NCBI RefSeq assembly: GCF_006345805.1
Contig: NC_042998.1
Span: forward strand, 146,444,001 to 146,508,000
DNA: 64,000 nt
Source: Octopus sinensis
Taxonomy: Eukaryota
Direction: 5' to 3'
Positions 2,395 through 47,540 of the stretch are shown here, one piece after another. The position numbers and the translations under genes are program-made. Below the pieces are notes generated by a model. It was not told where the DNA came from. It was given only the letters and a program-made list of their open reading frames with translations, and searched no databases. How positions within the stretch are numbered: position 1 is the first letter of the stretch; every line of letters begins with the position of its first letter.

Positions 2395-4815
2395 GGTAGA
2401 AGCAAGAAGGAAGCTGCCACAAAACTGAAATCAGATTGGTGAGAGGCCAAAGCTGAAGAGGTACGGTACTATGCAGATAAAAACGATATGAAAGCATTTT
2501 ACTCAGAACTTCGAGAAGAGGCACAACAAAACTGATAGCTCTTGACGGCAAAACGGTACTCCATGAAAATCAGAGAGCTTAGATAGCTTTACCAATCATT
2601 TTAACAGGTTACTTGATATCTCAGGTTTTATGGACTATACCGCCTTTGAGAAGGTTACACAACAACTAGCCATCCAATCCTTAGATGACAAACTATTTAC
2701 AAGGAATTCAATGATGCAATCAAACAAATGAAAGAAGGTAAAGCACCAGGCAAATGTAACATACCCGCTGCAGTCGGGAAGCATGGAGGTGTGAAGCTTA
2801 TTGAAAGCCTCTATAGCATTGTGCTCCAGATCTGGGGAACGGAAACAGTTCCACAAGACTGGAAAGACGCAGGTATCGTTCCTATCTTCAAAAAAGTTTG
2901 TAGAACGGACTGTGGAATCTACTGAGAAATATCACTTTTATCAATAACTGAGATCTTGGCTAATATTCTACTGAACAGACTAAATTAGTATATCTGTCCA
3001 AATGTCTTACCTCAGACTCAGTGTGACTTCCGTCGCGGTAGAAGCACTGTGTGCATGTCTTCTGTTTTCGCCAAATTCAGGAAAAATGCATTGAGCAGGA
3101 CATGCCTATGTATGCAGCAGTGGCGGCTCGTGTATAGGCACTGCGGAACTGCTGCACCCCCTATTTTCACTCGATATTATTGATAACATTCAATATAATG
3201 AGTCCTTATTTCTTTAATTCTTTCTTTATGCTTGTACATTATATAATCCTCAAGCTTAATATCAGTAGTCATCCCCTAGTTTATTAAAAAAATGCAAAAA
3301 TCCTTGTATGGAACTGTGCGCTTCACAGTTCCAGCGTCGCGGTGTTTGGCTGTTGTGTGCATGCGCACATGTCCGAGATAGGAAACTGCACGCTAGGGAG
3401 AGAGAGTACTGTGATTCAGACAGTGCCGACCCTTGTGTGCTGGTGAAAGGTAGTGTTTCTTTTTGACTCCGCGTGTGTTGTGCTTTAAAACGTGTTTATA
3501 TTCTTGAATGTGATAAAGTGTTGAATCAGATTATCATCCTTCTTCCAGTTATAGTCTTGCTGTCAGGATTTGAAAAATAGGGCAGATTTCCACTCCCTTA
3601 TTTTGTGATTTAGGGGGAATTCGTAGTGATGTTCAGTGAATAAATGAAACACACTACCTGGCAGTGGATTAGACACCATCCGATCAAATTTATGTATAAA
3701 TTTTCGTTTTATATGTTTGTTTCCTTTTACACAATATTAAAACAACGGCTAAAAATTTTCTGAAGCAGCGCCCCCACTAATTTTATCTACGAGCCGCCAC
3801 TGGTATGCAGTATTCATATATTTCACAAGGGATTTTGACACAGCATTCCGTGAGTCGTACTAGCTCCAGCACCGTTTTTCAATCTGGCAGCAGTGTTGGA
3901 AGTTGCCTTTGAGGGAATTGGAGGTGGGATTTACATCCGGAGCAGGTATAATGCTGATCCGTTCAATGTAAAGCCAAGACGCGCACTACGAAGGCCCTTG
4001 TACGAGAGATACTGTTCGCTGATGATAGTGTGCTTTGTTGCCCACACTGCTGAAGGTATACAGAAACTGGAAATTAACTTTGCTAGAGTTGCACAACAGT
4101 TCAACTTAAAGATTAACCTCAGAAAAATCGAATGTCTTTACCAACATATGGAGAACCTAACTTTCCTGTAACAGAGAAAATATTGCTATTAGAGATGTAA
4201 GGTTGGCCCAGTGCAAAGCATTCAAATACCCAGGCAGCACCATCTCACATAATGCACGACTGGACCAAAAAAAATCACACAAAATGAGCAGGCTGTAGGG
4301 GAGGCTGTGGAAAAATAGAAATGTTTCTATACGTGTCAAATGTAAGGTATACCAGGCTATAATGATTTCTTCCCTGCTGCAATGTGCTAAAACCTGAACG
4401 GTCTGCAAAGCTAAAGTAGACAAGTTACATGCATATATGAAGAGACAGATACGACGAATTATGAATATCGCTCTCCTTGACAAGATCAAGAATGAAAAGA
4501 CCTTACGGCGTGTTGGTCTACCTCCTATGATGGAAATCCTCATTGATAGAAATTTACGTTGGTTGGGTCACGTACACAAGATGAAAAACAAATTCCCCAG
4601 ACAAATCCTTTACTTCCAACTATGCAAGAGGAAAAGAAACTATAGAAAATCTAGACTGAGATTCAAATATACTACAAAAAGGAATGTGAGGTGGAAAGGA
4701 ATTGATCATAATAAATAGCAAACCCAAGTGAAAAACAGACGAATTTGGAGAAAGTTTAAGTCATGCCAAAGCCACGAACAGTCACAGTCGTGACAGCTGA
4801 CGGCAAAGATAATGA
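2395..4815 (+). pseudogene. Decayed RTE-clade LINE ORF (RT region), interrupted by a hAT MITE
   Basis: Peptide fragments MKEGKAPG..IP, VPQDWKDAGIVPIFKK..DCG.Y and LRWLGHVHKM..PRQILY are typical of RTE RT and C-terminus. Many stops and frameshifts; boundaries approximate. Confidence 0.85.
3118..3802. mobile_element. Non-autonomous hAT element (MITE)
   Basis: Perfect 14-bp TIR CAGTGGCGGCTCGT / ACGAGCCGCCACTG; 8-bp TSD GTATGCAG (3110-3117 and 3803-3810). Confidence 0.92.
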
Positions 4816-5105
4816 TACGTAGTCCTCCTTGCTTATTTCCCTTAGACACTGTCAATTTCTTCTTTCTTTTGTTTTCTTTCTGTCACTTCAAATCCATTTA
4901 GTGTTTCTGATAAACATTTCCTTCTTCCGGCAAATTAGTTTATTTCGCTCTATGAACTTCTATTTACTGTTTGCTTATATCGACTTTTTGCTTCATTGGA
5001 TTCTTTATTGTTTACCTAAAAGAAAAACAACAAAAAACATCCGACAAAGTTTTTCTCCCGTGCAAAACTTAATCGACAACAACTTTTGCATTTTTTACAT
5101 CGAAG

Positions 5106-5111
5106 GTGAGT
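5106..5111 (+). promoter_or_regulatory. Candidate 5' splice donor (possible non-coding first exon of the propeller gene)
   Basis: AAG|GTGAGT is a perfect consensus, in non-repetitive CpG-retaining sequence. Confidence 0.3.
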
Positions 5112-5151
5112 GGAGAATTTATTTATCTTATTATTTATTATCTATTTAGAG

Positions 5152-5630
5152 CAGGAGTGGGGAAACTTTTTAGTGCGGCGGGTAAAAATTTCCAAAGAAA
5201 AAGGATCGCGGGTGGATCACAAGTTCTAACTGTGTAAATCTTGCATATATCTATGTATAATTCGATATACATTAATAAAGATAAGATTAACACATTAAGT
5301 TAACGCGCAACATCTCATTAAGGCCGCCACCGAATTTAGGACGTTTATATTACTTTCGAGATATTCTTTATTTTTCAGCTAGAGTGTAGTTGGGTCTCAA
5401 GGGGGTGTTTTATAGTGAAAGTAATATGTGTTTTATAATGAAAATAAAATGTCGATTCACTTGGCAATTACCAGACGATTTTCTGTTCGAGTCTAACCAT
5501 TTTAAATCGCAGTGGAAATGCGACCTATGTCGCAAATAGGTATACGAATATTGTATAAATTTTATAATCGAAAAGTTTACTATATTTTGTACAGACGAAT
5601 GTATCAGCCCGCGGGGGTTCCCCACCACTG
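5152..5630. mobile_element. Non-autonomous hAT (Charlie-like) MITE
   Basis: Imperfect TIR CAGGAGTGGGGAA / TTCCCCACCACTG; 8-bp TSD ATTTAGAG (5144-5151 and 5631-5638). Confidence 0.88.
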
Positions 5631-5759
5631 ATTTAGAGTGGGAATTGGGTTCTGTAAAAGCTTTTGGAAAACTGAAAGTTAAACGTGGTATTTTAAAGTT
5701 TAGTGCAGGAATGGGTAACCTTTGTGGGTTAATATAAAGATCTTCACCCGTTAACAAAA

Positions 5760-6395
5760 ACACAAAATCCCCAGCCTGCTGGGTGTTAACAATTGTGTAG
5801 AAAACGAATATGACAAAAACGAACCTGGGGGATGGGGAGAGGACTTTCAGTAACTTCACAAGATCCGATTTTTCCGTCATAACTTTCGGGAAAATGGATA
5901 TATATTGATTTTTTTTACGGGATCCCACGTTTTTGGTTATGGAGGATCCGATTCTGAATTTTTTTTTCAAAAATCGCATTTTCAAAACTTCAGTTCACCC
6001 TCCCACTCTTCATTTTTCACTTTTCCCGGAAATTTTCCCAATTTTTTTTTTATGAAATACGTAGAAAAAGGCGAAGATTGAGATGAAATTTGTGGGGAAA
6101 TCCACAAAATCCGAGTTTTTCCCTCGTAACTTTTAGTAGAATGGGTTTTTTCAATGAAATTTTATAGAAATAGGCGCAGGAGGGGCTGTGTGGTAAGTAG
6201 CTTGCTTACCATCCTCATGGTTCCGGGTTCTCCAGCATGGCCGCAGTCATGAAACAAGTAAAAGAGTAAAAGATTAAATACATTTCAAACGGCATACATT
6301 ACGATTATAAATTTGTGAGGAAAATCTTTTCCAAAGGGTGGGGAGAGAGGACTTGGGAAAATTCACAAGATCCAATTTTTTCCCTCATAACTGTT
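5760..6395. repeat. Unclassified repeat with three copies of an internal ~30-bp motif
   Basis: CACAAGATCCGATTTTTCCGTCATAACT-like motif at ~5857, ~6103 and ~6364; interrupted by a SINE fragment. Confidence 0.5.
6172..6272 (+). mobile_element. Internally deleted SINE (head fused to tail)
   Basis: The head AGGCGCAGGAGGGGCTGTGTGGTAAG..GGTTC joins directly to the tail TCCAGCATGGCCGCAGTC..GAAACAAGTAAAAGAG. Both parts match the full copy at 11338-11743. Confidence 0.75.
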
Positions 6396-6487
6396 TATAT
6401 AAGTGTGTGTGTATATATATGTGTGTGTATATGTGTGTGTATACATATGTGCATATATGTATGTATATATGTATATGTGTATATATA

Positions 6488-7122
6488 GCCAAATCGGCTA
6501 TCTGGGCGCTGTCTGTACGTCCCATTAGTACATCAAACGCATTAGGGGTATCTCTACGGACCAACAACTTGCTATCGAACTGGATGAAAGATTTCCTAGC
6601 AGTCAATGTCACACTAATTTCCTCCCTGGAGAGGCCTGCCTTATTGTGTGCGTGCCATAGGGCCTTATTAAGTATAATAGGGTTGATTGAAGAATAGAAA
6701 CTAGATATATCGAATTGGATAAATTTAGTGTTGGCCTTATCAGTAATAGAAGTAAACCAATCTACGACTTGAACAGAATTGGACCATAAGCTAAGTTTTA
6801 ATTTATTAATTAATATAGGGATATACTTATCTAATATGTATTTACTAAGGGTACCGATGTCTGAACTGGAAGGGCATATGAGCCGCAATGCTGGGTTAGT
6901 ATGAAAGTTCTGTTTGTGGTCCTTTAAGATGAATCTGGGTTGCCTGGGGTTCAATGGTTCCGTCTTCATCTGTAATCCGTAAGTCTCCATAATCTGCTTA
7001 GTTTCTAAGTTGGTTTGCCTGAGAGTATTCCTACTGGTGGTCCTGTAATTCTTATGTATCTCCTTTTTGAGCAGTTCTAAATAATGGCTCTTGGTAAGCT
7101 TATATATGTTGCCGGTTTTATC
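6488..7122 (-). pseudogene. Penelope-like element RT, N-terminal part (inverted segment)
   Basis: DKTGNIYKL, FILKDHKQNF..P.LRLICP, IQFDISSFYSSI and FDVLMGRTDSAQIADL correspond to PLE RT motifs up to motif B. Confidence 0.88.
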
Positions 7123-9057
7123 ATAAACCTTCCACTAATCTTAAGTATATCAGCATTTTCAGTAATCATGCCAAGCCAATTACCGATAATTTAGTTAAAA
7201 ACATATCTCTGAGACTGTCCAAATTATCTGCTAATGTCGACATCTTTAACCAAAAGGCAGACTTCTATAACGCCGCCTTGTCAAGAGCCGGTTATAAGGA
7301 GAAAGTGTCATACATCAACCCAGCTCATTCTAAACCAACATCTGCTTCTCCAGATAGTAAAGTTACTCGTAATAGGAATAATGATTTCAATTCTAATAGT
7401 GCCAGCAACCCTGTACATAAAATAAATTCTTTACGGACTAGGGGAGGTAAGCACCATGCAACCCCAAATTTCCAACCCAGAAATTTTCCCCTTACTATCA
7501 CAAACAACAGTAAGAACAATTCAAAGGCCACAAAAAACTGTATCTGGTTTGTAATACCTTTCGGAAAACAAATTAAATCGAACCTTCCCTTACAGTTCCG
7601 TGAAGCCGTTGCTAGGAACTTTCCCAGAAATTCTAGATATCATTCTATTATCAATTCCCACAAGGTCAGAATAGCTTTCTCTAACACTAGGAATCGTTCA
7701 CAAGTTATATCTTCCCACAATACCAAGCTGCTAAACAAAGATTCTTCACCCGGGAGTTCCAACACTAATCTTGCTAATTCCAACCCATCATACAATCATA
7801 ATAATAGGAATAGTATTAATAGTAGCAGCATTAGTAGCAGCGAAAGTGTTAACAATGATAATATTAAAAATAGTATTAATCGTGTTAATAACAATGGTAG
7901 TGTTGATGGTAACAACAATAACGGTATTATTGTCGGTGGTATTGCTGGTTGTAATACCATTAATAATACTAATAATAATAGAAATAGTGTAGTTGTTAGC
8001 GCTAATAATAATAGTAACAACAATCATAACAATAAAAACTTCGTCTCGATCTCGGAGGACAACCCCAACAGAATTAAATTTTTGTCTAGTAATTCTAAGA
8101 TTAAGAATTCCATTTACCAGTGTAGAATTTCTTCTGGTACTGATGTCTTCTATATAGGAGTGTCCACTTCCCAGTTATCCAAGAGAATTTCAAACCACTA
8201 TTCAACATTCAGGGATAGGAAAAAACGACATAGTACAGGGCTAAGTAAATTAATTTGGCGTCTTAAAGACAACAATATAATTTTCAAGTTAGATTGGTTC
8301 ATATCGTCTGTATCCTTTCCTTTTAATAAGGGCAGGAGATTTTGTAACATTTGTAACTCTGAACTCTTCCATATTCTTTTCGATAAGGTTCCCCTAGTAA
8401 ACACACTCATAGAAAAACGTACAAATGTAAACACTGGCAGAAACACACTTTCTACTCATATAAATGATAACGATAGTCACTGTGGTTTGAACAATTAGCT
8501 TCACGTCCACCCCACTGCTATAGAGAAATTCTTTACTAAGCCTTGGAACATTCTTTCAATCAACGTACCCTTCCCTCTCCACTTGTTCCCTACCTATTAT
8601 TCCCTTATACCTTCCCTTCCTACTATCTATCTTTGACGGATGTCTCTCTCTCACACACAAAATCACACACACAGACACAAATGCAGTTATACACACACAC
8701 AAACACACGCACTCATTAACACAAGCACACACCCACACATTTCCATACATACAGCAAACATACTGTTCCCTACCTATTATTACTTTATCCCTTCTCTTCC
8801 TCCTACTATCTATTTTTGACGTCAATTCTTCTAACGGATTTTAAAAAAAAAACACTCATTATCGCTTTGTTTACCATGTAGGCAATCATCGAAATTTTTG
8901 TGTGTCTTGTTGAGAGAGGCTCCCTTTCTTTCCTGATGAGAAGATTGCATAATGCACCCTTTATTCCTTTGGAATGAAAATATGCTGTCTTCGAAACATG
9001 TGTCGAGAGTAAAGGAATTTTGTTAACATCTTCGTTCGACTCAATTCTTTCATTTAT

Positions 9058-9504: not shown

Positions 9505-11337
9505 GAGGTAATGAAGGTCACAGAGAGGATCATAGCCCAATGAATTAGGGAGAGAGTCAGTTTAGATGAGATGCAGTTTGGGTTTGTGCCAGGGAAAAGT
9601 ACCACTGATGCTATATTTCTGGTAAGACAGCTGCAGGAGAAATACCTAGCCAAAGATAAACCTCTGTACCTGGCTTTCGTTGACATGGAGAAAGCCTTTG
9701 ACAGGGTCCCCCAGTTCCTTATCTGGTGGTCAATGAGGAAACTAGGGATAGATGAATGGTTAGTATAAGAGCTGTGCAAGCCATGTACAGGGACGCTGTC
9801 AGTAAGGTGAGGGTTGGCAGCGAGTACAGTGAAGAATTCCAGGTAGAGGTAGGGGTCCATCAAGGTTCAATCATCAGCCCTCTCCTGTTTATCATAATCC
9901 TCCAGGCAATAACAGAGGAATTCAAGACAGGATGCCCCTGGGAGCTCCTCTATGCTGACAACCTTGCTCTAATTGCTGAGTCACTATCAGAACTGGAGAA
10001 GTTTCAGGTGTGGAAACAAGGATTAGAATCAAAGGGCCTTAGAGTCGACCTAGCTAAAACCAAAGTCCTAATAAGTAGGAAGGCAGGCAAACCTCAAATC
10101 CTTTCAGGTAGTTGGCCCTGCTCGATCTGTAGAAAAGGCGTAGGTAGAAACTCTATAAGATGTACCCAGTGTAAGCTATGGACACATAAGAGGTGCAGTA
10201 ATATCAAAGGAAGGCTAACTGGGAAGATAGTTTTTGTATGTGGCAGATGCTCAGGAGCAATAAACACTGAAAATGCACAGAGACCAACTTCCGCCTCATT
10301 CCAGGGAGAAAAACTAGAAGTAGTTGATAGCCTCCGTTACCTAGGTGACCAAGTCAGTAGTGGAAGAAGGTGCGCTGAAAGTGTAGCTGCTAGAATAAGA
10401 ATAGCTTGGGCAAAGTTCAGAGAGCTCTTACCTCTGCTGGTGACAAAGTGCCTCTCGCTCAGAGCAAAAGATAGACTGTATGACACATGTGTACGAACAG
10501 CCATGCTACATGGTAGTGAAACATGGGCCGTAACTGTTGAGGACATGCATAAGCTCACAAGGAATGAAGCCAGTATGCTCCACTGGATGTGTAATGTCAG
10601 TGTGCATACTCGACAGAGTGTAAGTACCTTGAGAGAAAAATTGGACCTAAGAAGCATCAGATGTGGTGTGCAAGAGAGATGACTGCGCTGGTATGGTTAT
10701 GTGGTGAGAATGGATGAGGATAGCTGTGTGAAAAAGTGCCACACCTTAGCTGTTGAGGGAACCTGTAGAAAAGGTAAAACCAGGAAGACCTGAGATGAGG
10801 TCGTGAAGCATGACCTTCGAACATTAGGCCTCACTGAGGCAATGGACTAGTGAGCGAAACCTTTGGAAATATGCTGTACTTGAGAAGACCTGGCAAGCCA
10901 AGTGAGACCATAACCCGTGGCCTATGCCAGGGTTGTAACCAGCTCACTTGTGCATACCCTTCATTGGACTCTAAACTGTTTGCGAAGATCTGTTGAGGCA
11001 AGTGAAATCGAAATCAAATTCGATGGCAGCACTAAGAGCACCATCCGAGCATGATCATTGCCAGGGCCACTGACTGGCTCCTGTGCCGGTGGCACATAAA
11101 AAGCACCATTTGAGCGTGATCGTTACCAGCATCGCTTTACTGGCACTTGTGCTGGTGGCACGTAAAAGCACCCACTACACTCTTGGAGTGGTTGGTGTTA
11201 AGAAGGGCATCAAGCTGTAGAAACTGTCAGATCAGGCTGGGGCCTGGTGCAGCCATCTGGCTTGCCAGTCCTCAGTCAAATCGTCCAACTCTTGCCAGCA
11301 TGGAAAGCGGACGTTAAACGATGATGATGATGATGAT
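9505..11337 (+). mobile_element. 5'-truncated RTE-like LINE with a PHD finger embedded in the RT region
   Basis: QFGFVPGKSTTDAIF, FVDMEKAFDRVP, GVHQGS and LLYADN (catalytic D replaced by N); a C4HC3 finger; ends in a (GAT)n tail. Confidence 0.93.
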
Positions 11338-20786: not shown

Positions 20787-21599
20787 TTAAAGGGGATGAG
20801 AGAGTGGATACTTTCATAAGAGTGTGAGGGGGAAATAAACAGGTGTAGGTAGAGTTTAATATGAGTGAGGAACTAAGGTGGGGGTACAGTTGAAAGGGAA
20901 ATACCAATATGGAGAGGGGTGAGATGGGAGATATAGGAGTGGCTTAAGAAGGGGAATAGATCAGAAAGAGGTGGGATTATGTGCAAATTGTAGGAGCAGT
21001 GGAGAAGGAGATATAGAGACATAAGGGGCTATAATAAACACGATATGATGATAGATATAGAATTTTATAGATTTTTGACAACTGTTCTTCTGCATGTAAC
21101 ATCATAGAGTATATGAATTAATCCTATTACAAGTTTACATATCTTTGTCTTGCTCTGAAAAAATTCTGTGGGTTTACATACAACCCACCCAGCAAGAGTA
21201 TGTAGGGTCAATGACCAAAGAGTAATAAGTGCAATCTAGTTACTCTTTATCTCCCGGTGTGTCTGTTGATTCAGAGTCTAATATTTATGTTGTTCCCTGT
21301 ATTTTCCTTTTTCTTACCTCTTTATTATCTTATCTTCTTTGTCTTTTTGTAAACCTAGTTATGTATACATATATAAGTACATATTTAATGTTCCTGCTTA
21401 GATAATTCTTTATAAGAATTATTGTTGTTTCAATATTTTAATCTATCAGTAAATCAATAAGGATTCAAGTATTTCTGTTATATAAATTGTTGAAGGTAAT
21501 AGATAAAAAATAAATAGCCATTAAATATTTAGCTTCCTAATCTAGATAATAATTATCTTGTCCATAAATTGTTAAACTTAATGCCAAACTAACATATTC

Positions 21600-21660
21600 T
21601 ATTCTCTGTCTTTCTTTTTAATTTCCATTGCAATTCTTTCTTTCCTTCTATTTATTGTAG
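21600..21660 (+). promoter_or_regulatory. Splice acceptor of the large coding exon
   Basis: A long polypyrimidine tract ends TTGTAG at 21660, about 170 nt before the first in-frame ATG. Confidence 0.65.
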
Positions 21661-21829
21661 TATCTTCTTGTTGGAAGTTGACCATGTGCGTATTAGAAGA
21701 AATGAAGCCAACCTTTTGAGATGGACATAATTTTTATATATCATCTTTAGTAAACAACAATGGAAATCGGTTTAAGCATTGGAATATGAACTGAATTTTA
21801 AGGAAGGAGAATCTGGAAAATTGTTAAAA

Positions 21830-24800
21830 ATGTCACAAAAGCGAAAACATTCGCGTTTGGATTGTATGATTCCCAGTAAAGTACAAAAAATGGCATCACG
21901 TAAAATCATTTCTAAACCAAGTTTGGAAGATATAATTCCACATAAAGTAAGAAAAAAAGCTTCATTTAAAACAATTACTAAAATTGTTTCAGAAAAACAA
22001 GGTTGTAATCTATGGATTAATAATCAAATTGATTTGCGTAAAATATATTTAACAAATTTCCTTTGTGAGTTATTTGCTATGAGAGATAATGTAAGTGATT
22101 CAGAGTTTCACAAGAAAGCTCTGGTGAAGATAAAATCAGTTATAAGGGGAATTACCTCATGGAATTATACAAGTCTGCCAAAAACCATTTGCTACTTAAA
22201 GAAATTGAGCAAAATCCATCATGGTTCAAACCCACCATTTCAAATGTTACATCACAAAGTAAAATTTCGACCACTTCAAAAAATTACAACTCATTTTGTG
22301 AATTTCAACCTTCTTTCTGAACAGTTATCATTTATTAATATAACAAAGATTTTGATGCTTTATGATGTTGCTGTCATTTATGACTCCTACAGCTTGTCTA
22401 TAAATTACATTAATCAAGATGGACTTTGTGAAACTTACTATTTTAACTCTCCCATCACAGATATGACACAAGTGGGAGAGCATACTGTTATGGGAAGTCT
22501 TCCTTTCAGGAATAAAATCATCTTAATTCATCCTTTCAGTCTGGAATTGATAACTCTTGACCATGGTTTTTATAAACTTTCCTATGTAGAAGGAACAAAA
22601 TTTGTTGGTGTGAAGTTGTTTTCTAAAACCATTTACCTTGTGGACTGGATTCAAAGAGATATACACGCTTTATTTAACATTAATCACTTCATTTCATCAA
22701 TTGCTGTTGGACCTCGAAAACTTATTCTGGTGGCTTTCAGTATCATTCCTTGTGTTACCTGTTATAATCTCCAGGGCAGAAAATTATTCCAGTTTGATGT
22801 TCCATTCAATGATAAACTGATAGAAATTGTAGCCAACCAAAAATATTTCTATTTCTTTGAAAACAATAATATTTTCAAGGTTTCAGAATTTGGTGGCATT
22901 TCTAAGAGAATAGTTGAAAGAACTCCTCAAAAGATTTATCTTCACCAAAACAATCTTGTTTTATTCAGTAATTTTAAATATCAAATTATCACCCCTAATT
23001 CTGGCCACGACAAACCTATTTTTCTCATAATCAAAGTCCAAGGTATCTCACCAGTCTAGATATTGAAAATGCACGTGATATAAGGGCTGTAATACCAATA
23101 TCAAGACATTGTTTTATAATTATTTATTTAGAAAATTTCATAAAGTTACTCATTCTTCGTGATGAAAAGAAAATTATTGAACATTCGTTAACCCTGGAAT
23201 CACCTTTGATTGATGTCTCTCGATGGGCTGAGGACAAGATCATTGTTTCATTTGGCAGGAAATTCCAAAAGATCTCCTGGGACAATTATAATCTTGTTGC
23301 AACAAATATACAAGCGACTGCAAGTGAAATTTACATCCAAATTAGTCATATTATATCTGACAAATTTGTATGTTTAGTAGATGGACATAAAGCTCAACTA
23401 CATATCATATGTGTGACAGAAAGTAAAATTGAACCTATTGAGTTTATAAATTTGGAGCATGGAAATGTCTCCATTGCAGCCTCCCCACTCAATTTAATGG
23501 TAGTGGACAAAATGGATGAAAAACTTGTGGTTTTTTCTACTGATGGAGAACAATTATTTCAAATACAGCTTCCTGTGATTGAACAGCCAAGGAAAGTGTA
23601 TTCAGACATCCTTTATTTTTATATAATTTCTAACAACAACTCAATTAAGATATATAATATATTTGGACAGCTAAAGAGAGAGTGGAAAATTCCACGTCAT
23701 TTTCTGCCAGTAATTGGTGTTCAGAAAGGGACAGTTACCATTGTGGACCCAATAAACAGTATACTTCATTGCTATAAATTTCTTTGTGGTGATGGGTATC
23801 AAGTTCCAGTGAAGACTCTTAAAGATACCACAAGCACTGATATAATTTATGATGACCAAAATCAAATCAAAGCTATTATTGGTTCTGTATGTCTTGTGCC
23901 CAATGGTCAGTTAGCTATTGCTGAGTGGGGAGAAAATAAATTGTTACTATGTTGCAAGAAAGGAAATATTAACCATCAGCTTAGCGTACCATCTCCAATT
24001 ACTGATATCTGTCGATGGGATTGCAACAATTTAGGATTAACATTACCTCTTGAAAAACAACTCTGGATTTTTGATTATGTTTCAAATTATATTAGAGTAA
24101 GATCTTTTGAACAGCCATATGTTCTTATACATAAGTTAGACAATGACAGGGCTATTTGCTACTGTGACAAATCTAAGTGTCTAGATATAGTTACAATAAA
24201 ACTCACTAGTCAACAACCAACCAGACGTTTAGCTATATGTCCCAGTTATATCAGATCTTTACATTTGTGGCACAACAATATTCTGGCACTTACCAAAAGT
24301 CAATTGTTGAAATACAACACTTCTTTTTGTGGTTCTCCTACTATTTTGTATCCCAAATTTGGTTCTGGAAGATGTCTGTATGATGTATGTTCTGACAAAA
24401 CAGCCATATATTTAATTGATGACTCACAAATGCTTTCATTCAATGAAGAAACATTAATGGTTTGTGATTATGTGTCTTGCCAGCAGCTTAAATCTTTCAT
24501 TGATCAACTTGATATCTTCTCCTGTACAGCAGTTGTTACTGATACATTATCATCTGTAGTACATCGTCATGATATATCAATGACATTAAATAAACATGTC
24601 TATCAAGTACCACATACCTATAAAGACACAAAGAGGATCATTATTTCAGCTCTGTTAATTACAGATAACAATTTAATAGTAATCTGTGATAAAAACAACT
24701 GCAGCATAAAGATATTAACTTTTAAGGGTGAACTAATTGATACGTTGGATTTGAACTCATCACCTACAGGGATTTGTCGTTGTTTATCCAATAGTTTTGC

Positions 24801-26853
24801 TATTTCCACCAACACAGACAAACTGTTAACAGTTCAAGTTCAGTTTCCTTTAACATATGTCAGCTTTAAAACATGTAAGAACTACAGATGCATTGCTTCA
24901 TTCTCAGATGGACGTTTAGTATGTAGCTGGACAGACAATGGAAGCTGTGGTCTAAGTATAGTTGATTTAAAATCATCTGTTTTTATGGAAAAGCACATAA
25001 ATGGTTGGAATGAAATAAGGAGGAAAACTATTCATGATATGACAGTTACTCCCAATGATGAAATAGTGGTTCACTGTTATGATGAAGATGATACTTTTAG
25101 TGAAGTAATATTCTTAAATATCCATGGTCAAATCACAAAGCAAGTAACTCCTCTTAATATGTCCATGCCTATTAGTATCACTAGTGATAAACTTTATATT
25201 TACATAATAACAAGTCAACCAATTGACTACTATTACAGGGTCACACGTTTGTCGATGGATGGCAAATATCACAGCATGTTTCTTCATCCGCATGAGTTAA
25301 TTGACGAATCAGTGTTAACTGCTATGAACTGTCGGGGACCACGATTTGTTATGGTCAACAGTAGCAATAATCTTTATACAGAAGGATTGTTGTCTCTTAA
25401 TAGAGAAATATTTTCAGTATCTCATCTCCAATGTGATAACTTCCCAGTACAAGTGAAAGATTTTGATGTATCTGAGAGAGGTCAGATTGTTATCTATGAC
25501 AGAAAGAATGACATTATTAAATGTTTTAGAAGTGGTGGATTGTTTTTGTGTCACAAGAAAATTAATTTCATAGTGGGAGGGTTATGTTTCATTGAGACAG
25601 GGAATATTCTAATCACTGTTCCCCAGATAAGAGAAATACAGGAGTTGAGTAAAAACACTTTAAGTGTTAAGAGGGTATTTAATACTGAAATACCATATTG
25701 TAAAATATACCGAAAAATCCACAATCATTATTGGTGTCAGGATTTAGAATCAACTGAATGTCATCTTGTTAAAATAGAAAATAATAACACTATTGTAATT
25801 ATTCAGAAAATTCTGCTTATCCAACATCCTGAATATCAGTTTTGGTTCAATTCTGAAGAAGAGAAAAATAGATTTAACCAAGAAGGGAAATTGCGAAATA
25901 GTCCAGATTTGTACATCCAAGCTATAAAAAGATCCAGAAATTGTAATAAGAGATTGCTCAAACAAGCTGGTGATTATATTGCAAGTTGTAGAGAGGGATC
26001 AAATATTGTAGCAGTAAGGAAATTGCCACGGAGAAAGGAAATTGTTTGCATTCCTCATTCAGTAGATAAAACTTTAGAAACCTCTCACTATGGAGCACAT
26101 TTTCTTCTTCTGGACAACAATAAAATGGTTGTAAGTTATAATGACAATGTAATAGTAGTAAGAACTAAAGAAACAGCAATGGAAACATCTGAAAATTTAC
26201 ACAAATTCAAAACTGATGCTGAAGTTAGTAACCTTTGTCAATGGAAGCAGGAGAGTCTTGTTTTTTGTCTTCCTTCAGAAAAACAATTTGTATTTTATAA
26301 TTCTGATTTCTCTTTACAGGAAAGAATCTGTACAGACAAAAGCTATGAGTATATTGGCAAAACCAGCAATAATTGCTTGGTATGTTGTAGAGGAGGTGGA
26401 GTAAATAGATTAGGGAGCAGTGAGATATATAGTGGTGCCTGTATAGATATATTGCTCATTGAAGATAGCACTTATGTTTACAAGAGTCAGAATGATATAA
26501 CTGATGGTATTATATACGATATAGCTGTGATGTTAGATGGTGATGTTGTAGTGAGTGGAGAATTTCAAGGTAAAGATTCAGTTTGTTGGTTCAACCATGA
26601 TATCATCAAGATAATAGTAGTACCTGTAATTGGAAATCCAAAACGAATCACAGCCTTTGGACAGTATGCTTACTACTTTGACTGGTATGGTATCATATAT
26701 CGTGTCTCCATTGATGGTTATTGCGAGAGATATATCACTACAGACAATAGAGAAATTATTACAGTTCACGATTTACATGCTGCAGATTTCAGTTTGATTT
26801 TGTTTGGACAATTTGTTGAAGGTGATAGTGCTATCTGCTTTTACCAAATATGA
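21830..26853 (+). CDS. Single-exon multi-beta-propeller protein with about six tandem NHL/TolB-like modules; one frameshift at ~22999-23059 (~1670 aa if repaired)
   Basis: ORF 21779-23059 (first ATG at 21830, MSQKRKH) overlaps a -1 frame that is open from 22999 to the stop at 26853. Recurring blade motifs include ISALLITDNNLIVICDKNNCSIKILTFKGELI..SSPTGIC, IGSVCLVPNGQLAIAEWGENKL..PITDICRW and VKDFDVSERGQIVIYDRKNDII. No TE motifs are present. Confidence 0.8.
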
Positions 26854-27165
26854 ATGCATTTTACTTCTGAAGGAATTTTACTAACTAAACAGGAAACTAT
26901 AAAGGCCAGGTTATTTGTGGGCTGCATGCATCTCTTAAATCCTTATTGCAAAAGCAGAAATCAGCAAAGAAGAACTACATTCTGTGTATAGACTTTTTTG
27001 TGTAATTTAATCTGAGGAAGAATCAAAATATTCTTAAACCTTCATGTTTTCTTTGATACTTGTCACCACCAGAACATGGTGACAGTGCCGTTATAAATAT
27101 AAATTATCTTACAAAGCATTAACAGTGCAATGGCTGGAGTATTTTCTGTGATGCAGACTTAGCTA

Positions 27166-28847
27166 CCATGTTTCCCCGAAAATAAGCCCTACCATGATTT
27201 TTCAGAATGTTTTTAATGTAAGCCCTACCCCCAAAATAAGACCTAGTCAAAAATGCATCAGCTTGTTAGCAAGACCATGTGATGTTTGCAAAGTAAGCCT
27301 ACTAGCGCAGCTTGGCTAAAGTCTGCACTAAGCATACACGGAGTTGACTCCCTTGTCCCCCAGAAAAGATGAGTGCAGAAAGAAAGAGTTATTCTGTGGA
27401 GTACAAGAAAGGAATTGTGGTAGAGTCACATAACAAGAATCTTACGGCTATCTGTAAGGAGATGATGTTAGATCTCTGAATGGTTCGAAAATGGTGAGCA
27501 GAGTACAATAATCTCAGCAGACAGTTAGATGAGGGAAGTGCTAAGAAGCACAAGTTTGTATCAGGTTGACAACCATTATTTTTGGAGCTGGAAGATATCA
27601 CTCCGGGATGGATTGCTGACAGAAGAACAAAGGCTTTGGTTGTACATAGGGTTGATATTCAAGAATTTGTTCTTGCAATGGTACCACAGTCAGATATACC
27701 CCCAGAGATATTCAAAGCATCACTCATTGATTGGATAACTTCCCTTAGTGATATGAGCTCTCTCTAATAAGATCGACAACACTGTTCAAGCTGGAGGATG
27801 CTGAAGTGATTCAACGTGGACTTGCATTCAAGTCCTTCATTGATGGTATTGACTTTTTAAAATACAATCTCTCCAATATAATTGCTATGGATGAGACTGC
27901 AGTATTTATGGGCCAAGGATCTAAAATGACTGTTGAACAGACAAGTGCCTCATCAATCTACATTGCCTCAATGGGTTACAAAAGTGCAAGAATTACTTGT
28001 ATTTTACCAATTTGTCTTATCACAAAGGGCAAAAAAGAGAAAATAGAATGCGTTTCGGGCATTTATGTCCTTGAAACGGAAAAGGCTTGGTGCACACAAG
28101 CTGTTATAAAGAAAATGAGTTGATTTTAACTATGCCACTTGTTTTACATGGTTCTCAAGAGGTCTTTTATTCTGGGATTTGGCCAGTACTCATCCTGCAA
28201 AAAATATGTAAACCTTCATTTTTAAAAGAAGAATTGACCACATAATGATTCTCATGGGAATGACTTCATATCTACAAACATTAGGTCTTGTAATAAACAA
28301 GCTCTTCAAGGATTATTTGCAGATGGAAGTGAATGACTATATCAAACATAGAATGGAGAGAAATCAGCGTGGAAACTTTGTCAAACCCATCCTCAAAGAA
28401 GTTGTGAATTGGGTGAGGAATTCATGGAATAAAATTACTGACAGTCGCATTGCCAATGGACTACAAGCAAGGTACTTGGACAAAAAGTGTTCATTTAAGG
28501 AAAATTATATTGCCAAGCATGAGAGATTGGAGTCCATGATTATACAAGAAGTGGATTTGCAAGACATTCAGTCTGAAGTTCAGGGTTTGATGATTTATGA
28601 CTATGTTCCAGAAGAGGACAAAATGTTTCTACTTGACTAAAAACAATAAGCAAATAAATTAACTTTTGATAAGTAAAATCATAGGTATCCTTTTTACAAT
28701 TTTTTCCTTTTACATGAGGACATGAAACTTTTTGTCTTTCTTGGATTTTTTCCGCAAAAATTTAAGACATTCCTCAGAAATAAACCCTAATGCGGATTTT
28801 GGATGCAAAATTATTAAAGACCAAGTCTTATTTTCGGGGAAACATGG
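27166..28847 (+). mobile_element. pogo/Tigger DNA transposon with decayed DDE transposase
   Basis: 21-bp TIR CCATGTTTCCCCGAAAATAAG with TA on both sides; NIIAMDETAV and LQTL.LVINK.FKDYL motifs; multiple stops. Confidence 0.92.
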
Positions 28848-37080: not shown

Positions 37081-40000
37081 TCAGAGCCCGTTGAATGTAC
37101 GTCCGATTGCGATGAGCCGTGGAGCCGGAGAGGGCAAAGGCGTCTGTGCAGGTGAAGGTGTTTGTGCAGGTGAAGGCGTTTGTGCAGGTGAAGGTGTTAG
37201 TGCAGGTGAAGGCGTTGTTAAAGGTGCATAGGTGGGTGTGTCAAGGTTGTCATCAAAAGATGAAGACGTCTCAAAATGTGCCTTTTTTAAACGGTCCACG
37301 GAAACGGTCTCCGAACGACCATTTATCTCAATCGTGAAAACCTTTGGTGTGCGAGAAAGCACACGGAAAGGTCCTTTATAGGGAGAAACAAGTGGGCCCT
37401 TCACAGAGTCGTCCCGAAAAAAAACATGCGACCAGGTGTTCATATCCGGTGGAAGATGGGACGGTGGAGATTGCTTTCTGGGAACCATGGGTGGAAGGTT
37501 CGAAAAGTATGCACGCAGTCTGGTGACATAGGTCGCCGGATCATGGGGCTGGGAAGTGTCTGGCACCAACATCGTACCAGGCAATGCCAGTGTGGTACCA
37601 TACAGCAGCTCTGCAGCAGAAAACCCCAGGTCTGCCTTGACAGCAGTCCGACAGCCGAGAAGCACAATGGGCAGAAATTCAATCCAGGACTGTGGGTCTG
37701 AAGAGGCACGAAGAGCGGCCTTGAGCTGTCTATGGAACCGCTCAACCAGTCCATTAGACGCTGGATGGTAGCTTGTAGTGTGGATATGGTGCATACCCAA
37801 AATTCGCGACAATTCGCGAAATAGCGAGGCCTCAAACTGACGTCCATGATCAGTTGTCAATCGGGACGGGACTCCGAAGCGAGAAATCCAGTTTGAAACG
37901 AAAGCTCGCGCAACAGTCTCAGCAGAAATGTCTGCTATTGGAATGGCTTCTGGCCAGCGGGAGAAGTGATCGACACAAGTTAACAGATAAGAGAACCCGC
38001 GACTCACAGGCCATGGTCCAACCAGATCGATGTGGACATGGCGAAAACGGGCCTCCGTGGGGGGAAATTGTCCAAGCGGGGCACGAACGTGCCGTTGAAT
38101 CTTGGACCGTTGACACTTGGAGCAGGTGCGTGTCCAAGAAGTAATAGTGCGACGCATATTCGGCCAGAAAAACCGAGCAGTGATTAGTTTAAGGGTGGCA
38201 GCGATACCAGGATGTGATAAGGAGTGCAGTGCTTCAAACACTGAGCGTTGATGGTTCTCAGGCACCAGTGGCCTGGGAGAACCAGTGGAAGTATCACAAA
38301 GAATGGTGCCTTCGGCTGACGGAAGCGGAAGGTAGGAAAACTGGCAACAGGAGAACTTGGAAAAAGTTAAGTCTAACGATGCCAAAGGTGGCTGCTCCTG
38401 CGAGATGGCAGCTAAGTCGATAGCAGCAAGAGACGAAAGGGCGCAAACTGGAAGGCGAGAGAGAGCGTCAGCAGGAACGTTCTCTTTTCCAGGTATGTGT
38501 CGAATGTTGCTAGTGAATTGAGAGATAAAATCCAGGTGCCGAAAAGCACGGGGTGAGAGTTTGTCCGTTTTTGAACACAGGGCAAACGTAAGGGGCTTGT
38601 GATCCGTATAGATCACAAAATCTCGCCCTTCAAGTTGATGCTGGAAATGACGAACCGATAGATAGATAGATCGCTAGGAGCTCACGATCAAAGGTGCTGT
38701 ATCGTCGTTCAGCTGGTTGCAGTTGACGGGAAAAGAAAGCTAGAGGTCGAATATGATCATCCACTGTGTGTTGTAACACAGCGCCAATCGCAGTGTCCGA
38801 TGCGTCCACAGTCAAAGAGAGAGAAGCACCAGGAACTGGATGTGCAAGCAAAGAAACAGAAGCCAGCTCCTTCTTAATGGACTCAAAGGCTGTCACTGCC
38901 TCAACAGAGAGGGTGACTTGACTGTCCTTTCTAGGAGAGTCCTTTAATAGCCTGGTGAGAGGTAGCAGCTTATCTGCACAACCGGGAATGAAACGTCTGT
39001 AGAAATTGATCATCCCTAGATAATGCCTGAGCTGGCGCAAGGAAGTGGGGGGTGCGATGCGTTGAATGGCATCGACTTTTGACGAGAGGGGGCTGATTCC
39101 AGTCGAATCAATATGATGGCCTAGAAAATCTAGGGAAGAGCGTCCGAAAATACACTTGTCGGGATTTACACGTATGCTATAAGCGCGAAGACGCTGAAAA
39201 AGCTGAGAGAGGTGCTGGAGATGATTTTCACGTGTGTCGCTCGCAATGAGTATATCATCGACATAGGCAAACACAAAATCAAGACCGCGGACAACCTCAT
39301 CAATGAAACGCTGGAAGGTGCTAGTAGCATTCCGTAAACCGAAACTCACATATAAAAACTCAAAACACCCAAAGGGGGTAGTGATCGCAGTTTTCGGAAC
39401 GTCGGCTGGGTTGACCGGTATTTGATGGTACGCGCGTATAAGGTCGACCTTCGAAAAAATGGTACAACCATGGAGATTTGCCGTAAAGTCCCAGAGATTT
39501 CTAATCGGGTATCTGTCGGCTATAGTTACGGCATTGAGGCGTCGATAGTCTCCAACCGGGCGAAAATCAGACTCGCCCTTTCGCGCCAAATGAAGTGGAG
39601 ATGCCCATGGGCTGGTGGAGGGGCGTATAAGGCCAAGTTGAAGCATGTGCTCAAACTCGGCCCTGGCCGTTTTTAGTTGGTCTGGCGCAAGGCGCCGGGG
39701 GCGTGAGAATACAGGCGGCTCATTGGTGGTGATGAAATGGAGGGTCGAGTGGGTAGGCTTTTCCAGTTTAAAGGCAATGTCCACTAGCTCCGGAAATGAA
39801 ACCAAAAGAGAGTGAAAAGGGTCTCTGAGGTGGCAACAAAGAATGTCGGGCTAAGGACCGCAGTGGTGGAACTCCCAGTCGGTGTAGAGAGCGACGTCAT
39901 GCTATCAAGAAGCCTCCGACGCCTGACATCCACCAACAGATTAAACCTATCCAGGAAATCAGCGCCGAGAATAGGATGCGGGATGTCAGCGATGACGAAA

Positions 40001-40262
40001 ACCCATTGAAAGTCTCGACGAAGGTTGAGGTCGAGGCGCAGCAAAATCTGACCGTAAGTGGTTATGGGAGACGAGTCAATAGCATGCAAGACAATCGAAG
40101 AGCGCTTGGGCTTGTCTGCAGCCAGACGAAGGGGCCAGATGCTGCAACAGGAGCCGGTGTCCACCATGAAGAATTTCTTCGACACCAGATCTTTTACAAA
40201 GAATGCACGATGTTTGGGAAACGAGATGGAAGAAGGTGACGTGCTCACCTCCTCCGGATTTA
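37081..40262 (-). pseudogene. Gypsy pol (protease, RT, RNase H, integrase) with two frameshifts
   Basis: VDTGS protease motif; YVDD RT motif; DASD RNase H motif; H..SHPG..C..C zinc finger; HIDLVG, TTD.GRQF and NGLVERFH integrase motifs. The pieces are 39784-40262, 38630-39805 and 37081-38616. Confidence 0.93.
37120..37222 (-). repeat. 18-bp tandem repeat encoding TPSPAQ/L at the integrase C-terminus
   Basis: About 5 copies of GTGCAGGTGAAGG(C/T)GTTT. Confidence 0.9.
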
Positions 40263-40937
40263 GTTTTCCGAGGGCTTGAAAGTGCACGGCTGGGTACACC
40301 GATCTGCCCTTTCGGCAGAGCAACTACGACTGCGTTGTCGGCGCTCGATCGCACGGGACAGATCATCGATTCGCCGCGTGAGCGCATCGATCTGCTCGGT
40401 TAGTGAAATTTGCACAGGGGAAACTGTTGGAGGGGGCCCTATTCATGCATACAGGCCTCGCGATGGAGATAGATTCGGAAATTCCAGTATTCTATCGGCC
40501 ATCGTGGCAATCTGATCAACTGACACAGACTCCAGTACCGTGGCCAGCATTGTCTGCACATGGGCAGGCAACCTGGAGAAAAATATCCTCCGTAAGAGCA
40601 GCGCGTCCGCTGCGTTGCCGCTAAGCTCCCTTAGATGGTGCAGGAACTGGGATGGAGTTCTGTCCCGCAACTGCTCGTCGGCCATCAGCTCCTGAATATT
40701 GCTCTCCCCCGACCGTGTGTTGCGGCGGAGGATTTCTGCTTTCACGGACGCGTATGTGGCGTCTGGGTGGGGACTTATTATTAGATCCCTGATCGATGCG
40801 GCGAGTCGGGGATGTAAGCCGGAATATAGCAGGTGCAACTGCTGCTGTGGAGAAATGGCATGTGCATCAAAATACCACTCCACCTGGGCAAACCACAGAC
40901 CCATGTCCCCCGTGAATGAAGGCAAACCTGAAGCCAT
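40260..40937 (-). pseudogene. Gypsy gag with a premature TGA and a partly deleted zinc knuckle
   Basis: LPSF..WFAQVE.YF; the frame continues past the TGA at 40443-40445 to ..ADRCTQPCTFKPSEN* (stop 40260-40262). Confidence 0.8.
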
Positions 40938-42104
40938 GCCTTTGTCGGAAGGAATCTGTGAGAAAGGGGCAGAAGGTATGATCAAGGAATGGAGAGAGAA
41001 CACGTGGAACCGACAAAGCAAATCAAAATTGTGTTTTGTGTACTGTAGTGTTTGTGTGTGCACCTCGTAGGTAGCAAAAATAAGTGTGTGTGTACAAAGG
41101 AAAACAAAATACAGAAAAGGAAAAAAAAATGAATGTGTGTGTGTTCGTTTATTTATTGCGATGTCGTACGTGTGTCTGATGGGAGAAGGACAACCCCTGA
41201 TGTGCAGCTTCTTGTTAGTTTGTTGAAGTTTGTTGATGGTCGTTGGCGGCTAAGTCGTGAGGTTGTCAGAGCCCGTTGAATGTACGTCCGATCGCGATGA
41301 GCTGTGGAGCCGGAGAGGTAGATTTGAGTTTGGCGGGTAAAGGAACGTTTTCCCGCACATGCGCATGGGGAAGACTTCCGGTGGCCACCCGGAAGTAGTC
41401 CCATTCTGCGCATGCGTGCTGAACCCTACACAGTAGCATCACTACATGTTCTTTCCTATTTGTTCCTATCTAGAAATCAAAAGAAATAAGTACTATTCCC
41501 TTCAAACCTTGCTTTTGTGACCTGGACATCAATGTTTTGAAACTTACCTATTTTCCATATTTCAGACTGATTCAGCATGGATTTGCTGAAGCAGAAATAT
41601 CATTATAGAAAATATTCTGCTCAATACCACAGATTTGCTTGTCAGTTGCTTGACCTTAATCACTTGAGAATGTTTCTTAGTGACTGACAATATGTGCATC
41701 TCTGATCATGAGCAGGAGTAGTGGGAGAGTATCATAGTCATGTGTTGAGAGGGATTCTTTGGGGTTTGAATAAATATAACAAAAGCAAAGTTTGAAGGAA
41801 ATATTAGCTATTTTTCATACTCTCAAGGGGTAAGCAAATAGGAAATAACAGTTGCTACCCAAGGACAAAAACCATGTTACACAGTCTAATTGCTGATTTA
41901 ACTAAATATTGCTAACTTTTGTTTTAATGAAGTAATATTTGTCTTTAGCAAGTTAGATAGCTGGCACCCGCAGTTGTATCCATTCACACATAATATTTCT
42001 ACTCATTCATTCAGACATATCCATCCATTGATCTGTCTGTCCATTCATTGTCCCTCAATGGTTTCTAATACAGGCAGAAAGCCACAAAGAAAGGTTATTA
42101 ATTA

Positions 42105-45747: not shown

Positions 45748-47540
45748 GATGCTGTAAGTAAGGTGAGGGTTGGCAACAAGTACACTGAAGAATTCAGGGT
45801 AGATGTAGGAGTCCACCAAGGTTCAGTCCTCAGCCTCCTCCTATTTATCATAGTCCTCTAGAGGAATTCAAGACAGGAAGCCCCTGGGAGCTCCTATATG
45901 CTGATGACCTCGCTCTAATTGCTGAGGCACTATCAGAACTAGAGGCAAAGTTTCAAGTGTGGAGACAAGGATTAGAATCGAAGGGCCTTAGAGTCAACCT
46001 AGCTAAAACCAAAGTCCTAATATGTAGGAAGGCAGGCAAACCACAAATCCCTTCAGATAGATGGCCCTGCTCAATCTGTAGTAGAGGTGTAGGTAGAAAC
46101 TCTATAAGATGTACCCAGTGTAAGCTATGGACACATAAGAGGTGCAGTAATATCAAAGGAAGGCTAACTGGGAAGATAGTTTTTGTATGTGGCAGATGCT
46201 CAGGAGCAATAAACGCTGAAAATGCACAGAGACCAGCTTCCGCCTCATTCCAGGGAGAAAAACTAGAAGTAGTAGATAGCTTCAGTTACCTAGGGGACCA
46301 AGTCAGTAACGGAGGAGGGTGCGCTGAAAGTGTAGCTGCTAGAATAAGAATAGCTTGGGCAAAGTTCAGAGAGCTCTTACCTCTGCTGGTGACAGAGGGC
46401 CTCTTGCTCAGAGTAAAAGGTAGACTGTATGACGCTTGTGTACGAACAACCATGCTACACGGCAGTGAAACATGGGCTGTGACTGCTGAGGACATGCGTA
46501 AGCTCGCAAGGAATGAAACCAGTATGCTCCGATGGATGTGTAATGTTAGTGTTCATACTCGACAGAGTGTAAGTACCTTGAGAGAAAAGTTGGACCTAAG
46601 AAGCATCAGATGTGGTGCGCAAGAGAGACAACTGCGCTGGTATGGTCATGTGGCGAGAAGGGATGAGGACAGCTGTGTGAAAAAGTGCCACACCCTAGCG
46701 GTTGAGGGAACCTGTGGAAGAGGTAGACCCAGGAAGACCTGGGATGAAGTGGTGAAGCACGACCTTCGAACATTAGGCCTCACCAAGGAAATGACTAGTG
46801 ACCAAGACCTTTGGAAATATGCCATGCATGAGAAGACTCGGCAAGCCAAGTGAAAGCATAATCTCATGGCCTATGCCAGGGGCGTAACCAGCCCACTTGT
46901 ACGTAACCTTTTCCTTCTTTGGTCACTAAAGCTCTGCTTGCGAAGACCTGCTGAGGCAAGTGAAATCAAATCAAATCAATCAAAAGCAAAATCAAAATCA
47001 AATTCGATGACTTGCGTCCATGCTGGCAGGGTGCAAAGAGCACCATACGAGCATGATTATTGACAGAGCGGCTAACCGGCTTCTGTGCCAGTGGCATTTA
47101 AAGGGCACCATTCGAGTGTGATCGTTACTAGTGTCGCCTTACTGGCACTTGTGCTCGTGCTAGTAGGGTGCCAAGAGCACCATCTGAGTGTGATCATTGC
47201 CAGAGCAGCCAACTGGCTTCCATGCCAGTGGCACGTAAAAGGGCACCATTCGAGCGTGATCATTACCAAAGTCGTCTTACTGGCACCTGAGTTGGTGGCA
47301 TGTGTAAAAGGATTCGAGCGAGGTAATTGCTAGTACCGCCTGGCTGGCCCCTGTGCCGGTCGCATGTAAAAAGCACCCACTACACTCTCAGAGTGGTTAG
47401 CGTTAGGAAGGGCATCCTGCTGTAGAAACTCTGCCAAATCAAGATTGGAGACTGGTACAACCATCTGGTTCACCAGCCCTCAGTCAAAATCGTCCAACTC
47501 ATGCTAGCATGGAAAGTGGACGTTAAACGATGATGATGAT
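45748..47540 (+). mobile_element. 5'-truncated RTE-like LINE with PHD finger (second copy)
   Basis: Highly similar to 9505-11337; YADD is intact; a 298-aa open C-terminal frame; ~65-bp tandem subrepeats in the 3' UTR; (GAT)n tail. Confidence 0.93.

Follow-up and report, generated by a model that had tools for sequence, protein, structure and literature searches.

In RNA-binding NHL domains the top surface of the propeller is basic, and this surface, formed by the b-c and d-a loops, is where Brat binds RNA (PMC4015489); the strands of each blade close as in PMC5908797. Among TRIM-derived proteins, the teleost finTRIMs amount to 84 genes in zebrafish (PMC2657112). Here we describe a gene at 21830-26853 (+) of a 64,000-nucleotide stretch of the Octopus sinensis genome (contig NC_042998.1, here C2, positions 146444001-146508000; hereafter the window), together with the large family to which it belongs. 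Its protein is predicted to consist of five six-bladed NHL propellers and a shortened fifth module, numbered 1 to 6 from the N-terminus. In clustered paralogs of this gene strong diversifying selection acts on propellers 4 and 6, mainly on their predicted top faces, and the window copy is a conserved, single, deep-branching outlier of the family.

The 2.72 Gb assembly of the source genome was searched twice, yielding 169 and 150 matches (only the best candidates were scored), which collapse to at least 132 loci: 67 on chromosome-scale contigs and 65 on 60 small contigs, some of the latter probably being haplotype duplicates. At least 56 loci lie on C30, the smallest chromosome-scale contig, between 1.5 and 15.1 Mb, and the remaining chromosome-scale loci are on C1, C2, C9, C10, C25, C27, C28 and C29. 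Single contigs from one DNA run reached depths of 4,400-8,000 compared with 50.8 for the window gene, which hints at roughly 90-160 close copies, depth not being equal to copy number. Most of the 40 loci fetched are collinear single frames of 1670-1930 amino acids (aa), mostly 30-33% identical to the window protein; many copies in the family have broken frames. Named members come only from O. vulgaris, O. sinensis, O. bimaculoides and Argonauta hians, in keeping with an earlier note, made by a model from the letters of the window, which had thought the protein lineage-specific. Apart from automatic domain labels, their records read uncharacterised or hypothetical.

None of the sequencing runs listed is recorded as RNA or carries tissue or treatment labels; we call some of them RNA-like from their size and exon-limited coverage. 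Splicing of the cluster copies uses a conserved acceptor, and transcripts of these copies are present in all three RNA-like runs, which come from three different studies. Depths of single contigs reached 6,800, 2,700 and 740 in these runs, values in which paralogs are pooled and which do not rank individual copies.

Selection was analysed in 22 intact close paralogs (17 on C30, one on C1 and four on small contigs), the other 18 fetched loci being divergent or broken and therefore excluded. Comparison of site models M2a and M1a gave twice the log-likelihood difference (2dL) as 564 for propeller 4, with omega 8.6 on 16% of sites, and 561 for propeller 6, with omega 10.2 on 15% of sites; the values for propellers 1, 2 and 3 and module 5 were 3, 47, 23 and 21, respectively. 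Restricting the set to the 13 closest copies left 2dL at 367 (propeller 4) and 317 (propeller 6) versus 3-34 elsewhere. The N-terminal, propeller 1 and propeller 2 types recombine freely, and distances between modules correlate at 0.10-0.63, except for propellers 4 and 6 (0.91); the cluster copies are mosaics, with modules swapped between paralogs. Because of this mosaicism, pairwise ratios of nonsynonymous to synonymous differences (pN/pS) were also counted free of any tree, with a codon bootstrap and four intervals per module. The ratio was 1.30-2.28 in propeller 6, with all four confidence intervals (CIs) above 1, and 1.10-2.17 in propeller 4, with three of four above 1, compared with 0.34-0.70 in propellers 1-3 and 0.58-0.79 in module 5.

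Most of the 72 selected sites fall on one predicted face: the b-c and d-a loops hold 62 of them, strands hold 8, and the other face has 2 (Fisher p 8e-14). Identity between paralogs averages 25-30% at the selected sites and 89-90% elsewhere. The paralogs also differ in the net charge that these sites carry, which can be as low as -6 and as high as +9. Two Argonauta paralogs are 97-99% identical in propellers 1-3 and module 5, 90% in propeller 4 and 89% in propeller 6. Differences on the top and bottom faces were further counted in held-out pairs, that is, pairs outside the site-model test. In propeller 4, a top-face excess was found in three of four pairs: 15/107 versus 2/95 in Argonauta, 50/109 versus 12/95 in L033/P0042 and 28/107 versus 5/95 in L043/P0045. 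In propeller 6 a clear excess was found in only one of these four.

In the midpoint-rooted tree the window gene groups with its three orthologs on a branch of their own, which is the longest. The orthologs are from O. vulgaris (P0003, CAI9717522.1; 6 aa differences from the window protein), from O. bimaculoides (P0006, XP_014788575.1; 1674 aa, 94% identity) and from a Logan contig (P0004; 85% identity, with a start 13 codons before the window ATG). They are 92-96% identical in every propeller (95% in propeller 4 and 96% in propeller 6) and have no top-face bias (top 5/116, bottom 5/95); the sole coding substitution in run X2 is synonymous. In the window ortholog the top-face residues count, as bare counts, 12 K/R versus 17 D/E in propeller 4 and 11 versus 17 in propeller 6. 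Since both faces are constant, the window copy likely binds a fixed host partner. A role as a variable sensor is thus less likely for it than one as a member with a fixed partner, either the ancestral member or a shared helper.

On balance we favour, with moderate confidence, the view that the cluster copies are variable intracellular immune receptors and the window copy a fixed-ligand member or helper. By varying what are predicted to be the top faces of propellers 4 and 6, the clustered copies would detect fast-changing pathogen or parasite molecules inside the cell. Each of the two propellers would offer a variable binding site, and the other four modules (propellers 1-3 and module 5), with the helical N-terminus, would be the constant scaffold that couples binding to an effector. 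As RING and B-box have been lost, the effector would have to act in trans; a signalling partner from the host, such as a TRIM/E3, is most likely. The ligands would be foreign and fast-evolving, and probably proteins rather than RNA, because the charge of the faces is not fixed. The window protein itself would bind a fixed partner, as ancestral member or helper. A bolder version, which we put forward tentatively and regard as doubtful, is that octopods have derived from the TRIM-NHL domain a germline-encoded, antigen-receptor-like repertoire of at least 100 intracellular proteins, in each of which an unvarying scaffold would carry two independent hypervariable faces. Recombination on a single small chromosome would shuffle this repertoire, and its members would signal through the conserved single-copy helper encoded in the window. 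The earlier note had taken the window protein for an intracellular sensor; that idea finds strong support in the cluster paralogs, while the window copy itself lacks such variation.

Several points weigh against an immune role. We coded the M1a and M2a models ourselves, holding the trees fixed and using naive empirical Bayes, and recombination inflates such tests, in which propellers 2 and 3 and module 5 were also significant. Without transition weighting, pN/pS of propeller 4 over all 22 paralogs was 1.10 with a CI of 0.88-1.38, which includes 1. Faces were assigned from the strand order of the models and an alignment of about 31% identity, not from coordinates, and the models have low predicted TM-scores (pTM). 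In the fourth held-out pair the bias in propeller 4 was weak or absent (12/106 versus 7/95), and in propeller 6 the counts were 8/108 versus 8/92 in Argonauta and 20/103 versus 15/86 and 6/101 versus 7/86 in other pairs, with weak or no bias. The protein has no recognised effector domain, an immune role is read from the evolutionary pattern alone, and the helper role of the window copy is only deduced.

Unlikely, though the best placed of the alternatives, is that the family consists of nuclear genome-defence adaptors whose variable faces track proteins or RNAs of transposons and endogenous elements. Such a role would predict the same selection pattern in a genome rich in transposable elements, and the K/R-rich N-terminal stretches present in many members resemble nuclear localisation signals. 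NHL domains are also able to bind RNA (PMC4015489, PMC5908797). The charges speak against it: the selected sites have no fixed basic charge across paralogs, and in the window ortholog acidic residues outnumber basic ones on the tops of both propellers, which likewise disfavours the RNA surveillance offered in the earlier note as a second possible function. Moreover, Pfam found no nucleic-acid-binding, repressor or recognised effector domain, the sole zinc fingers in the scan being C2H2 fingers in one probably fused gene model.

Less likely still is a self/non-self or cell-identity code (gamete, neuronal or allorecognition) under reproductive or developmental selection. The fungal WD-propeller NLRs, which are also clustered, recombining and hypervariable, do serve allorecognition (PMC4986451). 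Reading the surfaces of other cells would be hard for the octopus proteins, for which a crude hydropathy scan of four members gave no clear signal peptide or transmembrane segment (maximum 19-residue mean 1.63 in ortholog P0006), and transcripts occur in RNA-like runs of three different studies.

We consider it very improbable that the copies have no defence role and serve a housekeeping system of ubiquitin or trafficking as its variable substrate receptors, like the multi-propeller adaptors of DDB1 or Kelch type. The presumed ancestor was an E3 ligase, and DDB1 and IFT-A were, with LRP2/LRP4/ROS1, among the matches of a whole-model fold search; at TM-scores of 0.13-0.20 and 8-11% identity these matches reflect only general propeller likeness, and omega near 10 is not usually driven by host substrates. 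Equally improbable, and largely refuted, is a birth-and-death family under relaxed constraint in which recombination, misalignment or assembly error mimics selection, as the broken frames of many copies, the tolerance of loops to change, the evident mosaicism and the indel errors of the assembly might suggest: counted free of any tree, pN exceeds pS in propeller 6 and, among the 13 closest copies, in propeller 4 (CIs above 1), only two of six homologous modules and one face show this excess, and the propeller 4 pattern is repeated independently in Argonauta and between species.

We return to the window gene itself. The coding sequence, 21830-26853 (+), is supported by open reading frames (ORFs), reads and orthologs and encodes about 1674 aa after allowing for an assembly error. 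The earlier note had described it as one intronless reading frame of about 5 kb. The coding stretch stands, as does its confinement to a single exon; the frame is not intact in the assembly, and the gene is not unspliced. The assembly shows two ORFs, 21830-23059 (409 aa) and 22999-26853 (1284 aa), and lacks one base at 22996-23000 (+), in a short homopolymer. All four runs (two DNA-sized and two transcriptome-sized) carry an extra base at 22998-23000, and the three orthologs read through uninterrupted. The break near 22998 is therefore an assembly error and no real frameshift; the same evidence rules out a pseudogene or a programmed frameshift.

Upstream, a polypyrimidine tract and a 3′ splice acceptor (TAG) at 21630-21660 (+), seen in the sequence and in RNA-like contigs, mark the end of an intron in the 5′ untranslated region (UTR), whose upstream exon was not located. 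The acceptor AG is at 21659-21660, and RNA-like contigs of runs X4 and X10 begin at 21659; the X4 contig has 305 letters upstream of the acceptor that do not match the adjacent genome sequence. RNA-like runs have zero depth at 20902-21535, where DNA runs have 50-90. The zero depth upstream and the start of contigs at the acceptor thus place the coding sequence in one exon behind a 5′-UTR intron, and the window gene, covered by RNA-like runs from 21659, appears to be transcribed and spliced. In the 5′-UTR part of the coding exon, 21661-21829 (+), there are five upstream ATGs, and in-frame stops precede the start codon; with these stops between acceptor and ATG, upstream coding exons with a RING or B-box are unsupported for the window gene. 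A long 3′ region at 26854-28500 (+) lies under RNA-like contigs (X10: 25886-27818 and 27800-28500+) and continues past 28500.

Sliding family profiles revealed six repeats of about 255 aa along the protein, with cross-matches down to an independent E-value (i-E) of 4e-8 and first blades beginning near 22336, 23077, 23875, 24637, 25447 and 26093; the modules measure about 220-270 aa, and their starts agree with those given in the earlier note. AlphaFold2 models were made of window residues 648-1674 (mean predicted local confidence, pLDDT, 71.3; pTM 0.47) and of residues 1-913 of paralog L025 (72.4 and 0.42), and both have four-stranded blades throughout. Of the six propellers envisaged, five are predicted to be six-bladed and the fifth is not a full propeller. 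Nor is the protein made of propellers alone, for the L025 model and the alignment indicate, at 21830-22279 (+), a K/R-rich N-terminal tail and a predicted domain of three to four helices (41-67, 72-90 and 97-115 in the L025 model). A profile of this domain gave against TRIM coiled coils a best E of 0.016 among 22 sequences, which is not significant, and its modelled homodimer, for which the alignment was not used, scored 0.02. Atlas look-ups, taken as leads only, returned NHL clusters at 0.79 and, for the N-terminus, unnamed clusters at 0.84.

Propeller 1 (22280-22990, +) is predicted to have six blades (residues 132-380 of the paralog model) and matches a teneurin-like NHL chain with Z 18.4. 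Propeller 2 (23041-23793, +; paralog residues 386-644), also predicted to be six-bladed, matches Brat NHL with Z 21.0 and rmsd 3.5/249, and propeller 3 (23830-24580, +; paralog residues 651-909) matches Mei-P26 NHL with Z 19.9 and rmsd 3.3/246. Propeller 3 has six blades in the paralog model, and its last blade is of low confidence in the window model. Propeller 4 (24586-25404, +) matches Brat NHL with Z 27.4 and rmsd 3.7/256, followed by TRIM2 (24.7), PknD (24.3) and TRIM71 (23.9), and is predicted to be the module closest to the ancestral TRIM-NHL domain. Module 5 (25417-26022, +) is a shortened propeller with about four sheets and a low-confidence helical insert by DSSP of the model, and is the most conserved module among close paralogs (pN 0.02). 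Propeller 6 (26035-26850, +) is predicted from the window model to have six blades by strand count.

Pfam recorded NHL on the window protein below the cut-off (E 0.085), and a single-sequence PDB search gave TRIM71 at E 0.17; the family profile matches TRIM71 at E 5.5e-4. The Brat and Mei-P26 folds bear out the assignment to NHL propellers of the TRIM-NHL kind made in the earlier note. The lack of RING and B-box that it listed is borne out too: Pfam matched neither in the two window ORFs, nine paralogs and ten database members. A NACHT/NB-ARC NTPase likewise had no Pfam match, and the AlphaFold2 models have no space for such a domain.

When 1.84 billion proteins were searched with a profile of modules 2-5, 57 matched with E no higher than 0.001. 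The best match outside the family was a cuttlefish RING-B-box-NHL protein (CAE1315789.1; E 7e-13), which aligns over propeller 4 with an hhalign probability of 96.9, and similar TRIM-NHLs came next, one of them from Argonauta. No six-propeller member from squid or cuttlefish was among the named hits, names having been looked up for 20 of the 57. In the source genome, several NHL genes of the TRIM type each occupy a single open frame, and all six module profiles match at least one of them (best i-E 1e-16, propeller 4). The simplest history would be that the NHL domain of an intronless cephalopod TRIM-NHL was tandemly multiplied and that RING and B-box were lost. TRIM-type genes are numerous in this genome (L067-L075), a single long open frame encoding RING, B-box, coiled coil and/or NHL. 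One of them, an 1838-aa TRIM frame on C21 with a long Ser/Thr-rich tail, was rejected as a missing link because it has no propellers. A transposon or viral origin was set aside in the absence of such Pfam domains; phage, plasmid and viral collections were not searched.

Some members have peculiarities of their own. Acidic tandem-repeat or low-complexity inserts occur in the C-terminus of L033 and in loops of L028 and L038. In L021, a joint in X4 at 1825-2843 omits 1017 bases (339 codons), covering much of propeller 6 and the end of module 5; it is non-canonical as an intron on the gene strand and perhaps represents a deleted paralog. The O. vulgaris models P0013, P0023 and P0007 join a member to C2H2 fingers, a transposon domain or a second copy and are probably annotation chimeras. 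Members at 1.28-1.73 Mb and 9.30-9.36 Mb of C29 and at 9.96-11.03 Mb of C27 have long ankyrin-repeat frames within about 60-300 kb; no ankyrin arrays were co-located with the family on C30 among the 134 matches listed (best 150 of 1391 candidates).

The window also contains mobile elements. A long terminal repeat retrotransposon at 37081-41249 (-), presumably of Gypsy type, has gag-like, reverse transcriptase (RT)/RNase H and integrase frames in separate ORFs. Two related fragments of a long interspersed nuclear element, 9756-10682 and 45789-46853 (+), encode RT and a PHD-like Cys-rich finger. At 6385-8498, RT-like and GIY-YIG-like ORF fragments lie head-to-head with no Pfam match; we take them to resemble a Penelope element. 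A decayed DNA-transposon-like copy with broken ORFs at 27389-28640 (+) lies inside the RNA-covered 3′ region of the window gene, and is perhaps of pogo/tigger type.

The six-propeller family is apparently undescribed, as the earlier note had supposed: no account of it was found in literature searches or by looking up terms in the main text of two octopus genome papers, PMC9068888 and PMC10700109, the former mentioning unnamed squid gene arrays that it assigns to its supplement. The family has been overlooked, as Pfam misses its members and databases label them all uncharacterised. It offers a concrete candidate for the recognition of variable intracellular threats in octopuses, animals without antibodies, and the mapped variable surface residues make ligand hunting and infection studies, in farmed octopus included, testable. 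Known above all for RNA-binding regulators, the NHL propeller would here have been reused as a tandem hypervariable recognition platform. The significance rests on the family more than on the window copy alone.

Compared with known systems, the family is neither TRIM-NHL (no RING or B-box) nor NLR (no NACHT). With the TRIM-NHL proteins (Brat, TRIM2/3, TRIM71/LIN-41, Mei-P26 and CAE1315789.1) it shares the six-bladed NHL propeller, at model Z of 20-27, and coding in a single frame, as in several TRIM-type NHL genes of the same genome. It differs from them in having six NHL modules instead of one, in lacking RING, B-box, a detectable long coiled coil and filamin, in a top face that is not uniformly basic, and in its more than 100 copies under diversifying selection. 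The YWTD arrays of LRP2/LRP4/ROS1, DDB1 and IFT-A also have several beta-propellers per chain, with general fold likeness only and another blade type. LRPs are, besides, extracellular and have EGF spacers. TRIM56 is an antiviral factor of the TRIM family for which the literature discusses an NHL-like domain and RNA binding; it is a single-copy E3 with a RING, and has neither six propellers nor an expanded family.

As in diversified immune receptor families, the octopus genes show a clustered lineage-specific expansion (at least 56 loci on C30 and at least 132 in total), and positive selection on a predicted ligand-binding surface was found in the cluster paralogs and not in the window orthologs. 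The teleost finTRIMs and TRIM5alpha are likewise TRIM-derived, lineage-specific and clustered, with positive selection on the ligand-binding domain; finTRIMs keep RING and B-box, have a single B30.2 domain and are virus-induced, whereas here two of six NHL propellers vary (PMC2657112). The fungal NWD NLRs HET-D and HET-R are also intracellular, with hypervariable propellers, selection on the interaction face and exchange between members; their WD40 repeats are nearly identical and accompany NACHT and HET effector domains, whereas the NHL modules here are highly diverged from one another (PMC4986451). By analogy, the octopus family would work like the finTRIMs and the fungal WD-propeller NLRs.

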